Positions 41,959-47,684 of a DNA stretch of 64,000 nt are shown here, in pieces. Every line of letters starts with the position of its first letter. Positions within the stretch are counted from its first letter, which is position 1. Both the position numbers and the translations under genes were made by a program. The stretch is from a bacterium (GTDB lineage Bacteria > Margulisbacteria > Marinamargulisbacteria > JAHFDA01). The notes beneath the pieces were generated by a model. It did no database searches, had not been told where the DNA came from, and saw only the letters and a list, made by a program, of their open reading frames with translations. The DNA is taken from the NCBI GenBank assembly GCA_023249225.1, contig JAHFDA010000006.1:1349-65348 (forward strand), written 5' to 3'.

Positions 41959-43941
41959 TTAATTAGTTGAAGCCAATGCTACATCTCCAGAATCGCGCAC
42001 TCTTGAGGCAGCAACGTGGGCGTTGCGGGGTTGGGAAAAGGCGATATATTTTTTATTGGCCTCGGGTGTCATATCATAAAATTCCACTTTTTCTCCACCG
42101 GCTCCAAGTATCGAGGGGTCTATGGGTCTTACGGCCGAACCAATTCCAAGATTAGCCTCGGCTTTATACCAGCCGTCACCGATATTAAAGATCACGTAAG
42201 AGTGTCCGGGCTTACCCGAGGTATGAAACGTTTGGCAGGCAAAGACAGCCACGCCGTCGCGAAAAAACCGCTCACTCATCGTTTGAGTGTAATTGGTATC
42301 TTTGGTTGAAAAAGTGTTGGTATGTGCGGGGCTTAAAGTGCCGTCGCCGTTATCAACGTAAAAATGATCCATGGAACCGCCTGTTCCGCGTTCATCGCCG
42401 ACCCAAAAGGTTCCACCGTCCTGGGTGCTTTCGATACCATACAGGGCCCCCAGGAATCGGACCGTGTTCGAAATGCAATCAATGGCCCCTGGGGTGACCG
42501 GCTCAAAATTTCCATCTACAGCCCCGGGAGGCTGGTCTTGAAGATCCCAAGAGTGTTTTAAGTGGTTGCTGCCAGCCACAGTGGAGCTATAAAAACCGGT
42601 AAAACGCGCCTGTGCAGTTTCTTGGTTTTGCAGCGCCAGTGGTGAGACAGACCCCGATAGATAACTGACTTGACCCACCTGGACGTTAACGGCTTTAAAG
42701 TTTTCAGACAAAAGCGTAACCGACACGGCTTTGCGCGTGGCATCACCGCGTTTTTGTAGCTCGGCGTCGATTTGGTTTCGGCGATCAATATTTGAATGAA
42801 AGACCTCTCGCCTTTCGCCACTTAAACTTTTTGTTTCGGCGGGTACGTGTTCCGGCAGTGTATATCCAAGGTCGGCAAAGGTAACGCCCGACCCAGAATT
42901 ACGCGTGCCTTTGTTAAAGTAAAGTGCGGTGCTGTCGTAAGCCAGATTACGGGCTTCGGGTAACTGGGTGCGGTCTTCGCCAATTGACCACGCCACAGCT
43001 GGATTAGCTCCAAAGTTTTCTTCAATCAGCGTTAAACACCGGTCGTATGAGGCTAAATCCGATTCAAAATCACCATAAGCTTCGGCCAAGCGACCTTGTG
43101 CATCTTTAATATCAAACGCCGAGTTTTCAAATACCTCGGATCCGATAATTGAAACCTGACCCTGCAGACTTCCGCGTATTTTAGAAACATAAGACGAATC
43201 GATCAGCATCTCCACGCTTCTTTCGGCGCTTTTAGGCGAGTTACTGTTTAAAAAGAAATACAGTTGATAGGCCTGCTCCTTTTTGCCTTGAGTGCCCAGT
43301 TGATTAATGCCATTAATCATGGCATTTTGAATTTGCGCGTCGCTCATGCCGGCGCTACTGGCAGATTTTAAGAACTGATTAAAGTAGAGTTGGGTTTCGA
43401 GTTGCTGAACATCACTGCTGTCCTGGGTGACGCTGGGCGTGGCAGTCAAAAAGTTTTCGAGCACGGCTTCTTTATTTTCGGCAGATCCAAGCAAGGCTGT
43501 GGTCAAGTCTGCCATTTGATTAAAACGCACCGGCGCGTCAGCCTTAGATTGTTTGGCAATAAAGGACAGGGCATTTTGCTGAAATTTTAAAATCAGTTCG
43601 TCAAAATTTTCTGCGCTGACATTTTGACTGGTTTTCTCTAAGCCCTGCACCAGGGCTTCGGCCAGTTCAGGAGGCTGAACCCCGGCTCGAATCTGTTGCG
43701 CGAGTGCTTGCTTTTGGGCGATCCATTTGTCTCCAGAGGGAATATTAACCTGCGCCACGGCGGTCTGGGCCTCGGCCTGTGTCACCTTGGGCGCAATAGA
43801 AGTTTCTCCCAAAGGTCCATCAGGCCCTTCGAGCGATCCACCTGTGGTAGGGGCAGATCCCTGTGCTACACGCTCCGAACGGGCAGGGCCCTGAACGGAA
43901 CCTGGGGTAAGGGAGCGGTTAGGTAGTCCAACTTCGGTCAT
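41959..43941 (-). CDS. Hypothetical 660-aa effector-like protein. The N-terminus is G/S/P/T-rich and disordered. The C-terminal domain is paralogous to the gene at 40826-41803.
   Basis: AIDCISNTVRF (C489) and KPGHSYVIFNIGDGWYKAE (H580) parallel the motifs in the gene at 40826-41803. The ATG overlaps the stop of the upstream small ORF (ATGA). Confidence 0.45.
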   Translation of the reverse strand: MTEVGLPNRSLTPGSVQGPARSERVAQGSAPTTGGSLEGPDGPLGETSIAPKVTQAEAQTAVAQVNIPSGDKWIAQKQALAQQIRAGVQPPELAEALVQGLEKTSQNVSAENFDELILKFQQNALSFIAKQSKADAPVRFNQMADLTTALLGSAENKEAVLENFLTATPSVTQDSSDVQQLETQLYFNQFLKSASSAGMSDAQIQNAMINGINQLGTQGKKEQAYQLYFFLNSNSPKSAERSVEMLIDSSYVSKIRGSLQGQVSIIGSEVFENSAFDIKDAQGRLAEAYGDFESDLASYDRCLTLIEENFGANPAVAWSIGEDRTQLPEARNLAYDSTALYFNKGTRNSGSGVTFADLGYTLPEHVPAETKSLSGERREVFHSNIDRRNQIDAELQKRGDATRKAVSVTLLSENFKAVNVQVGQVSYLSGSVSPLALQNQETAQARFTGFYSSTVAGSNHLKHSWDLQDQPPGAVDGNFEPVTPGAIDCISNTVRFLGALYGIESTQDGGTFWVGDERGTGGSMDHFYVDNGDGTLSPAHTNTFSTKDTNYTQTMSERFFRDGVAVFACQTFHTSGKPGHSYVIFNIGDGWYKAEANLGIGSAVRPIDPSILGAGGEKVEFYDMTPEANKKYIAFSQPRNAHVAASRVRDSGDVALASTN

Positions 43942-44360
43942 GATTTGTGCCCTTTGGGTACCAGGGTGACAAGTTCCTGGGTTTTACAGTGTTTTTGAAA
44001 GTACTCAATTTTTTTTTGCATTTCTTTTCGGTCGTGGTTTGTGCCGGGCTTGGCGGGGCTTTTGATGCTGGTAAATACCCAGACCTGGTCTTGAGCGGGA
44101 TCAAAATAATAACCCTGAACACTTTGGCCAACACTGTAAAAAAACAGACCGACTTTTTCATTTTCCTGGCACAAATAGATGTGTTGTCCGTTTGGAAAAG
44201 CTTTGTCTTTGGCCAGGGTATACATGCGGCCATCGGGCATAAGCTGCTTTAAGAGTGGCCCAAGTTTTTTGGATCCCTGCGAAGATCCAAGAGTCATTCC
44301 GTGAGCCTCACGCATTTGAAGGCTCTGAATGTCGACTGCGCCGGTTTTATTTAAAGACAT
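43938..44360 (-). CDS. Small hypothetical protein (140 aa), paralog of the gene at 47352-47684
   Basis: It shares LGP..., ...PDG..M[YF], Y.[YF]DP...Q..[VL][FY]F and KI.YF.K..K...L..L[VM]PKG blocks with the gene at 47352-47684. It is translationally coupled to the 660-aa protein. Confidence 0.45.
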   Translation of the reverse strand: MSLNKTGAVDIQSLQMREAHGMTLGSSQGSKKLGPLLKQLMPDGRMYTLAKDKAFPNGQHIYLCQENEKVGLFFYSVGQSVQGYYFDPAQDQVWVFTSIKSPAKPGTNHDRKEMQKKIEYFQKHCKTQELVTLVPKGHKS

Positions 44361-44580
44361 ACGTTAAGTATCTTTCCCAGTGTTTCAGGGCAAGTAACTC
44401 AATAAAATTATCGTGAAATGATGTGTAAAAACTTGTAATTTATAAAAATTTACATAATTCTACAATTATAAGTACACTATTTTTAAACTATTTTACGATA
44501 AATTGTGTAAATAGGTTATTCATAAAAAGTCCTATGTTGGGAATTTCCGCGAAAACGGGAATGACAGTGAAAGGGTTGAG

Positions 44581-46326: not shown

Positions 46327-47266
46327 CGCCAAAATCCAAAATGGCCTGCGAGTAATTCAGCGGAAAGTAATCATCCCGGCTCATGTCTGCCTGGTGGCTC
46401 CAGTCAGTTAAGGCCTGACAGATCAGGTCATAGGCATTGACCGGGTTTACAAAATTTCTAAACATCAAGTCAACAATCATCAGGGAGACGCTGGGGTTAC
46501 GGTATTGCTTAGGTAAATTTTCGAGAGCGATCCACGCGAGATCAGCGTTAAACTGCGTTTCATAATCTGCTTGAATATCAGTTGCAAACTGTTTTAAATG
46601 CGTTAAATCCTTGGGAGGATGTGTCAGGGCCTGGTGACGAAATTCGGCCAAAAGTTGTGGGCTGACGTTTTTGGCATGCAGAGCGTCATGATAGCGCAGG
46701 TATTCAAATTCATTCATAAAACCAGAATTCGGCATGCGCGCTGCATCAAGCTGGTTCCATAATAAACTTGCTTTGGCGGCATTGCCTTGCAGGTGATAAG
46801 CGTAAGCCAGCGAAAATATCAAAGGCTGTGGGGCGTTTTCAGTCACCTGGGTTTCTAAATTTGCAATGACCTTTGGAAGCCGATCACTGACGTCGAAGCC
46901 AAGCTGGGATAAAACCAAAAGCTGATGCGCCAAAAAATAACTTTCGGTGCCACGCGGATCAACAGTGGCGTACAGTTCGTCTGCAGTCAGCGAATGATGA
47001 AATAAAGTGGCAATACGGTAGATTGCTTTTTCGGTTTCGTTGTTAAGTTGGGCGTAGTTATGGAATAAAATGAATTTTCCGCCCTCGGTATGGATCAGAT
47101 CATCCAATTGAAGCAACAGTGACCAATCATTTGGATTTTTTTGAAGTGCAGCATAGAGCCAACATGCTTTTTCCAAAGTTGAACCACTCACGGGTTTTTT
47201 AATGGCTTGAGTCGTGCTTCGGGGAGCTGAAGCGACTGTGTTGTTTGTAGCATAAACCCCCGTCAT
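46298..47266 (-). CDS. Hypothetical helical protein (322 aa)
   Basis: It is convergent with the 581-aa ORF and overlaps it by 29 nt. It looks helical and TPR-like but has no firm motif. Confidence 0.4.
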   Translation of the reverse strand: MTGVYATNNTVASAPRSTTQAIKKPVSGSTLEKACWLYAALQKNPNDWSLLLQLDDLIHTEGGKFILFHNYAQLNNETEKAIYRIATLFHHSLTADELYATVDPRGTESYFLAHQLLVLSQLGFDVSDRLPKVIANLETQVTENAPQPLIFSLAYAYHLQGNAAKASLLWNQLDAARMPNSGFMNEFEYLRYHDALHAKNVSPQLLAEFRHQALTHPPKDLTHLKQFATDIQADYETQFNADLAWIALENLPKQYRNPSVSLMIVDLMFRNFVNPVNAYDLICQALTDWSHQADMSRDDYFPLNYSQAILDFGASRYGFSNP

Positions 47267-47351
47267 ATATTTATTATCGTAGACATATGGTAAGTGATTT
47301 CAGCATTTAACGCGGGTTTACGCACCAAAATATTCGGGTATATTCACCCTA

Positions 47352-47684
47352 GTGGAAACCCTCAAGCAGCATCTTGGGCCGTTCCGGCTTTTGGTCTTAA
47401 AAAAAGGCGTAAAACTACCCGATGGAACGGATATGTTTCTGGGCGATGAAGGTGCACGTAGATTGGTGGCCTGGGCATCGTCCGCGACAGCGCCGTTGCG
47501 AGCCTATAGTTATGACCCTCAAAAACAACAAACTCTGTATTTTGACAGCCTGATGGATACCGGAAAACCGATGCTTGGCCTGATATCTGACATTAATTCA
47601 AAAATAAACTACTTTTTAAAAAACACCAAAGAATCAGACCTTTTGGTGTTAATGCCTAAGGGGAAGGCAATAAACTCTAAATAA
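47352..47684 (+). CDS. Small hypothetical protein (110 aa), paralog of the gene at 43938-44360
   Basis: It shares blocks with the gene at 43938-44360, for example KINYFLKNTKESDLLVLMPKG against KIEYFQKHCKTQELVTLVPKG. Confidence 0.45.
   Translation: METLKQHLGPFRLLVLKKGVKLPDGTDMFLGDEGARRLVAWASSATAPLRAYSYDPQKQQTLYFDSLMDTGKPMLGLISDINSKINYFLKNTKESDLLVLMPKGKAINSK

Follow-up and report, generated by a model that had tools for sequence, protein, structure and literature searches.

The window analysed here is a stretch of 64,000 nucleotides (nt) of contig JAHFDA010000006.1, from a bacterium of the Marinamargulisbacteria (assembly GCA_023249225.1). Our subject is two small genes of this window and the protein family to which they belong. 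The first, A140, encodes a protein of 140 amino acids (aa) (positions 43938..44360, minus strand) and the second, B110, a protein of 110 aa read from a GTG codon (47352..47684, plus strand). An initial annotation had proposed that the two are paralogs, that they are paired with large ORFans and that they might be chaperones or immunity proteins of an effector or toxin system. Both open reading frames (ORFs) are present at the positions that it gave. The family is previously unannotated, is real coding sequence and has a consistent architecture of coupled gene pairs; of its two diverged copies in the window, one is coupled to a large ORFan.

The two small genes and their neighbours

On the minus strand, A140 is followed by a gene for an acidic ORFan of 660 aa (41959..43941; isoelectric point (pI) 4.9), its coupled partner. 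The TGA stop codon of A140 lies within an ATGA overlap with the ATG start of this gene (43938..43941, minus strand), as initially annotated. A Shine-Dalgarno-like run, AAAGGG, is located 8-13 nt upstream of the same start, within the P-K-G codons of A140. The first ~60 residues of the 660-aa protein are rich in P, G, S, T, Q, A, and E, and the protein as a whole has no hydrophobic signal or transmembrane segment. On the other side of A140, a divergent AT-rich intergenic region of 220 nt (44361..44580) leads to the gene of a second acidic ORFan, of 581 aa (44581..46326, plus strand; pI 4.6). This region has promoter-like hexamers on both strands, in a number not above the expectation from shuffled sequence. 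The listed start of the 581-aa ORF is a TTG at 44581; the true start is probably the ATG at 44584, which gives a protein beginning with MTTVDSYP. Finally, a 325-aa ORFan lies 3' of the 660-aa gene (40826..41803, minus strand).

B110 stands head-to-head, across an 85-nt spacer, with a 322-aa ORFan (46298..47266, minus strand) for which only a sub-threshold TPR_3 match was found (E=0.072). Two small ORFs called in ENA lie 3' of B110 on the plus strand (47795..48395), one of 87 aa (47795-48058), separated from B110 by 110 nt of AT-rich sequence, and one of 98 aa (GTG start, 48099-48395). Gene calls for B110 itself differ, with 110 aa in ENA (P0021) and 83 aa in NCBI (P0002, from M28). The homology of B110 to A140 begins at residue 4, and the 83-aa version would lack both the initial helix and the initial strand of the predicted fold, so translation probably begins at the GTG at 47352.

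A140 and B110 are real paralogs, old and diverged. BLASTP aligns them over 104 residues with 31% identity (E=4e-13) and, when either is compared by tblastn to the six frames of the whole window, only the other copy is recovered (E ~1e-10). Their Smith-Waterman score is 112, against 27 +/- 4.8 in 2000 shuffles (z=17.8). The paralogy put forward in the initial annotation is thus borne out by three comparisons, and the motif blocks on which it was built fared unequally. The block KI.YF.K..K...L..L[VM]PKG is exact, and Y.[YF]DP...Q...F is correctly aligned with its spacing off. In contrast, PDG..M[YF] was misaligned: it couples LPDG of B110 (22-25) with MPDG of A140 (41-44), whereas both BLAST and a 19-sequence family alignment place LPDG opposite FPNG of A140 (55-58). 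The LGP block is unaligned in both. As for the pairing with large ORFans, it is true of A140 and does not extend to B110, which is uncoupled to any large ORF.

The 660-aa protein had also been described as a Cys-His protein, which amounts to a motif-level impression. The large ORFans of the window (660, 641, 581, and 325 aa) have no significant similarity to one another, no match to a known peptidase family and none in Pfam, NCBIfam, PADLOC or PHROGs. A Cys-His domain shared by the four was considered and rejected, the 325- and 660-aa proteins having in common only a short, non-significant PGH[AS][FY]V resemblance. PDB sequence searches with the 660-aa protein and with the 325-aa protein and its homolog gave no matches. 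This homolog, 50% identical, is encoded on a groundwater contig (locus L023, 2-640); the two share the stretches NCIFF.N.YLHLVLG.MPYS.YLG.GQPYGVA and HAF....G.HVLES.G..VHDYGL. Motifs of this kind are apparently what the earlier Cys/His protease idea rests upon.

A family of small proteins and their coupled partners

Neither A140 nor B110 matches anything in Pfam (E<=1), NCBIfam, PADLOC or PHROGs. When each was used singly in a word-index search of 5.8 billion proteins, only the query itself was returned. A two-sequence profile, run with HMMER exhaustively against 1.84 billion representatives, gave five further matches, P0003 to P0007. P0003 (143 aa) is 41% identical to A140, and P0004, P0005, and P0007 have 107-153 aa; P0006 (736 aa, five matched stretches) was dropped as a repeat-driven false positive. 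A six-member profile then recovered P0008 to P0020, all of 94-133 aa, unnamed and without Pfam domains. At the DNA level, a genome scan with the alignment of the main clade found 13 loci, 11 of them in metagenome-assembled genomes classified as Candidatus Margulisiibacteriota, Saganbacteria or WOR-1 and two in genomes labelled merely “bacterium”; a scan of JGI metagenomes added 47. In total, the exhaustive searches yield some 20 related proteins and about 60 loci, with few exceptions from Candidatus Margulisiibacteriota. Scans with the divergent members were less productive. With A140 and P0003, the species-representative genomes gave pattern matches among which no relative was confirmed, and a first metagenome scan with B110, P0005, and P0008 gave no matches. 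Viral and plasmid collections contained no copies of the family. One relative nearer the main clade, P0004 (153 aa), is encoded on a 1006-bp contig (ENA sample ERZ27297570) in the metagenome assembly that also supplied the window's contigs, and could be the same organism's canonical copy.

The typical length in the family is ~110 aa, which is that of B110. A140 consists of a core of ~105 aa preceded by a poorly conserved N-terminal extension of ~35 aa. Five residues are invariant in the 19-sequence alignment (P56, G58, Y120, F121, and L130 in A140 numbering); the family motifs are LPDG, Y.Y, YF, and LV.L.P. No Cys, His, Asp, Glu or Ser is invariant in this alignment, and therefore an enzyme is unlikely. 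An AlphaFold2 model built on the same alignment predicts a short helix, five strands, a long helix, and a strand, with a predicted local distance difference test score of 71-92 for core residues 40-135 and low confidence for residues 1-34. Together with hydropathy profiles, in which neither the small proteins nor any large neighbour has a signal peptide or transmembrane segment, the model points to soluble alpha+beta proteins of ~110 residues. A fold search with this model, of moderate confidence, gave no convincing match, whether to a secretion chaperone or to another fold; VC0508 (PDB 2w56), polo-box domains, and chalcone-isomerase-like or LolA-like open beta-sheet domains are listed among the nearest known comparisons. 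A family profile found nothing significant among PDB sequences. A140 has all the family features, namely the profile match, the conserved columns and the position of first cistron in a coupled pair. B110 has those of sequence and lacks the coupling.

In the main clade, the gene directly 3' of the ~110-aa gene encodes a 75-aa protein in every locus with enough DNA. The distance from the stop codon of the small gene to the start codon of the next ranges from -8 to +12 nt over 52 distinct main-clade loci, with an ATGA overlap in 21 of the 52. The 75-aa protein is unannotated and well conserved, with the consensus MxDxHGxGAFGIxPFLSEDxLKQ...IKTRAGK.AYL...EARGALKWI (loci L007-L022 and L025-L071; for example L010, 7980-10201), and has no match in Pfam, NCBIfam, PADLOC, PHROGs or PDB. 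Its gene usually overlaps the start of ilvD, which comes next in most main-clade loci and is followed by acetolactate synthase genes (ilvB-ilvN), with overlapping stop and start codons. This synteny is found across many Margulisiibacteriota genomes at 45-73% identity, and the main-clade pair is vertically inherited. In some loci, the pair occurs without ilvD, before genes for a PknB-like kinase, a PASTA protein, and RibD, or between leuC and leuD on the opposite strand. Since the pair is kept together when the third gene changes, the unit is the two-gene pair. A hidden Markov model of the 75-aa protein finds nothing in the window, and the 87- and 98-aa ORFs downstream of B110 are not homologous to it.

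A large ORFan as the coupled partner is seen only in outlier clades, that is, in the window, at P0003, and at P0005 and P0008; the large partners of these three lineages lack Pfam domains. The P0005 gene overlaps, by TTGA, that of a 518-aa ORFan, itself followed by a 458-aa ORFan, and the P0008 gene overlaps by 13 nt the gene of a homolog of the N-terminus of this 518-aa protein. In one of five near-identical contigs, the 518-aa gene is split into ORFs of 299 and 154 aa (L004, 2955-4488, vs. L002, 2438-3994), which reflects either a pseudogene or an assembly error. The P0003 gene, at locus L023, overlaps by ATGA a gene whose product begins with MTTVDPSLPRIS... and has the same initial MTTVD as the 581-aa protein read from its ATG. 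The P0003 gene also lies directly downstream of the homolog of the window's 325-aa gene; hence, this neighbourhood is conserved. A140 and P0003 are both located beside a 325-aa homolog and large proteins starting with MT.V. The A-type small gene stays with this group of large proteins, and its exact partner within the group is not fixed. No 75-aa-like domain is fused to a large partner or encoded elsewhere in the window or in L002.

Proposed partner binding and competing explanations

A function for the small protein may be sought in the product of the gene that follows it. Main-clade members have a pI of 4.9-6.5 and their 75-aa partners are mostly at 8-9.5. The charges are inverted for A140 (9.4), B110 (9.5), and P0003 (10.0), which are basic, with the 660- and 581-aa proteins acidic (4.6-4.9), so that in both settings the charge of the small protein is opposite to that of its partner. 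Apart from B110, each family member is encoded by the first of two tightly coupled genes, with the partner downstream. Within each outlier clade, the pairing persists where it is visible, P0005 and P0008 both preceding the same 518-aa family. Because of the charge inversion, the general coupling and the absence of catalytic residues, we propose that the small protein binds the product of the downstream gene in a non-enzymatic role, a tentative proposal whose chances we place somewhat below even.

According to this proposal, the small protein would be made along with the protein that the downstream cistron encodes and would bind it as a dedicated holder, a chaperone-like subunit or an inhibitor. 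In the main clade, the bound partner would be the conserved basic 75-aa protein heading the ilvD operon. In the lineage of the window, the module would have been duplicated and re-partnered, with A140 serving the large, acidic, lineage-specific 660-aa protein and possibly the 581-aa protein as well. B110 would have lost its coupled partner or never had one, and would act in trans on a neighbouring ORFan or be an orphan.

Several observations weigh against this proposal. B110 has neither a large coupled ORF nor any translationally coupled gene downstream. The visible part of the P0003 partner (38 residues) resembles the N-terminus of the 581-aa protein rather than that of the 660-aa protein, a weak resemblance (local alignment z=2.8, reached by 1.7% of shuffles) that makes the true partner of A140 uncertain. 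The partner families of 75, 660, and 518 aa have no detectable similarity to one another and, therefore, a single mode of binding is not obvious. In a mirror-tree comparison, the small protein correlates with its 75-aa partner at r=0.41 and with IlvD at r=0.54 (partial r 0.38). Tight coupling may also be only operon compaction. The codons for the conserved C-terminal P-K-G or P-P-G contain the partner gene's Shine-Dalgarno-like sequence (AAAGGG, CCAGGAG), so that part of this “protein motif” may owe its conservation to a constraint at the RNA level. Rfam searches of the window and of eight main-clade loci gave no family at the gathering score.

The correlation with IlvD would fit another explanation, in which the small protein is a housekeeping factor independent of the product of its neighbour, for example an accessory protein or regulator of branched-chain amino-acid synthesis or of iron-sulfur (Fe-S) dehydratases. 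IlvD and LeuCD are Fe-S dehydratases. Most main-clade pairs immediately precede ilvD-ilvB-ilvN, the stop codon of one gene overlapping the start codon of the next, and one variant lies between leuC and leuD. On this view, the two copies in the window would be paralogs that have diverged and only happen to lie next to ORFans. However, the copies in the window and at P0005 and P0008 are away from ilv and leu genes, the pair persists without ilvD in several loci and no known regulator or Fe-S assembly domain was detected. This explanation appears unlikely to us, though not negligible.

The initial annotation had favoured chaperones or immunity proteins, a reading which is partly supported. In its favour, family members are the 5' genes of coupled pairs, and large partners do occur in three outlier lineages. 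Homologs are not solely standalone genes in unrelated contexts, the pattern named at the outset as contrary to the reading. The expectation that they always neighbour large variable proteins fails, since the partner at about 60 main-clade loci is the small, conserved 75-aa protein. No chaperone, adaptor, antitoxin or immunity family was matched, and nothing shows that A140 and B110 are secretion chaperones or immunity proteins.

As a secretion chaperone or adaptor, A140, and perhaps B110, would hold large effectors in a secretion-competent state and deliver them to a dedicated machine, in the manner of class I chaperones of type III secretion systems (T3SS) or of the Eag and DUF4123 adaptors of type VI systems (T6SS). 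A size of 110-140 aa and the position of A140, directly upstream of a large ORFan and coupled to it, are as expected in such a case. The large neighbours are acidic, without Sec signals or transmembrane segments, and have N-termini rich in P, G, S, and T. Fic and Bro-N genes are near, the neighbourhood of the 325-aa homolog is conserved in L023 and the 322-aa neighbour has its sub-threshold TPR_3 match. Class I T3SS chaperones (CesT, SycE, SicP) would resemble A140 as small soluble alpha+beta proteins encoded beside a large lineage-specific protein devoid of a Sec signal. These chaperones are usually acidic, with a pI of about 4-5, whereas A140, B110, and P0003 are basic. Neither a profile match of the CesT, Tir-chaperone or YbjN type nor a secretion-chaperone fold was obtained, and none of the 19 family members matches a chaperone- or adaptor-type Pfam family at E<=0.1. 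T6SS adaptors (Eag/DUF1795, DUF4123, DUF2169) share with A140 the position immediately upstream of a large variable protein; however, the small proteins have no Pfam match, and the 660-, 581-, and 641-aa proteins lack PAAR, Rhs, and VgrG features. Of the ORFs scanned in the 64-kb window, none matches a secretion-apparatus family, T6SS genes included. A search of the literature on Margulisbacteria with T3SS or futalosine found nothing relevant. On balance, a secretion chaperone is quite improbable.

In operons of toxin-antitoxin (TA) type, the antitoxin gene is upstream and translationally coupled. The small protein could likewise neutralise a toxic downstream protein, as an antitoxin or as an immunity protein, the large Cys/His ORFans being the toxins. 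This would fit the upstream, coupled position and the opposite charges of the partners, as well as the pair's behaviour as a unit in differing contexts, whether upstream of a kinase gene or, in opposite orientation, between leuC and leuD. Other TA cassettes are present in the window (ParE/antitoxin at 49477-50039, AbiEii at 59889-60629). The likeness to type II systems is that of a two-gene unit with a small first gene, a 4-nt overlap and oppositely charged partners. The likeness goes no further, as Pfam, NCBIfam, and PADLOC searches of the small, 75-aa, and large proteins found no DNA-binding antitoxin domain (RHH, HTH or AbrB) and no toxin domain of a known superfamily in any partner. Mobile TA modules are unlike vertically inherited, syntenic genes. 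The distribution here is not patchy: most evaluable main-clade loci have the same order, with a minority in other contexts, the synteny with ilvD is fixed, distances track IlvD and neither plasmids nor viruses contributed copies. Regarding immunity, the genes that protect against polymorphic toxins normally follow the toxin gene, at its C-terminal domain, and do not precede it, whereas at every locus the small gene comes before that of its partner. A toxin-neutralising role is therefore very doubtful.

The arrangement would work like that of a cognate small-partner pair, of which chaperone-effector and antitoxin-toxin pairs are examples, and the tests run for those families all failed. Returning to partner binding, its most far-reaching form would be a new fold class of dedicated partner-binding protein. 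An ancestral, phylum-wide module of 110 and 75 aa would control or serve the ilvD operon in Margulisiibacteriota. After duplication in the uncultured lineage of the window, it would have been recruited as the cognate chaperone or inhibitor of a set of Cys/His proteins, large, acidic and independent of Sec, whose genes are dispersed among those of the futalosine (menaquinone) cluster. The outcome would be an effector/chaperone or toxin/inhibitor system without known relatives. We consider this extended version a long shot.

Should the binding role hold true, a new family of small proteins would be defined together with its 75-aa partner; neither has any database annotation, and both are conserved throughout a candidate phylum from which no model organism is in culture. 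Four large proteins of the window's lineage, to which no function is assigned, would also become more accessible to study. For now, the result improves annotation modestly and is not surprising.

Genomic setting of the window

The window is ordinary chromosome. It contains housekeeping genes for ClpB, SMC, MetRS, and RadA and an rpsP-khpA-ylqD-trmD-rplS-lepB cluster (7950-10895, plus strand); there are no tRNA genes. The cluster is colinear with Margulisiibacteriota loci at 30-68% identity and, in these loci, is located a few kb upstream of the module made up of the small protein, the 75-aa protein and ilvD. This colinearity fits a related lineage, without proving it.

A140 and B110 lie within a region of futalosine (menaquinone) genes (36851-53482) encoding two radical SAM proteins (36851-37987 and 48385-49473), MqnA (40004-40783), UbiA, UbiX, and UbiE. 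The mqn genes are interleaved with nine ORFans (641-aa, 325-aa, 660-aa, A140, 581-aa, 322-aa, B110, 87-aa, and 98-aa) and a TA cassette, which suggests repeated insertion into one biosynthetic cluster. The GC content at third codon positions (GC3) of the ORFans is slightly lower (0.46-0.56 vs. 0.56-0.64). The cassette, which encodes a ParE toxin and an Unstab_antitox protein (49477-50039, minus strand), has a GC3 of 0.34-0.37, as compared to ~0.6 for its neighbours, and was probably acquired recently. Immediately upstream of the block of ORFans, genes for a 354-aa protein with a Fic domain and for a protein with a Bro-N domain (34904-36797, minus strand) are flanked by an amidohydrolase gene and a radical-SAM mqn gene; the Bro-N ORF has 311 aa, and 273 aa on the ENA contig.

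Beyond the cluster, an AbiEii-type nucleotidyltransferase toxin gene (246 aa) follows an overlapping 183-aa ORF without a Pfam match (59341-60629, plus strand), which may be its AbiEi-like partner. Two tandem paralogs of ~800 aa (54347-59204, plus strand) have a MopE-type metal-binding motif in addition to seven FG-GAP repeats.

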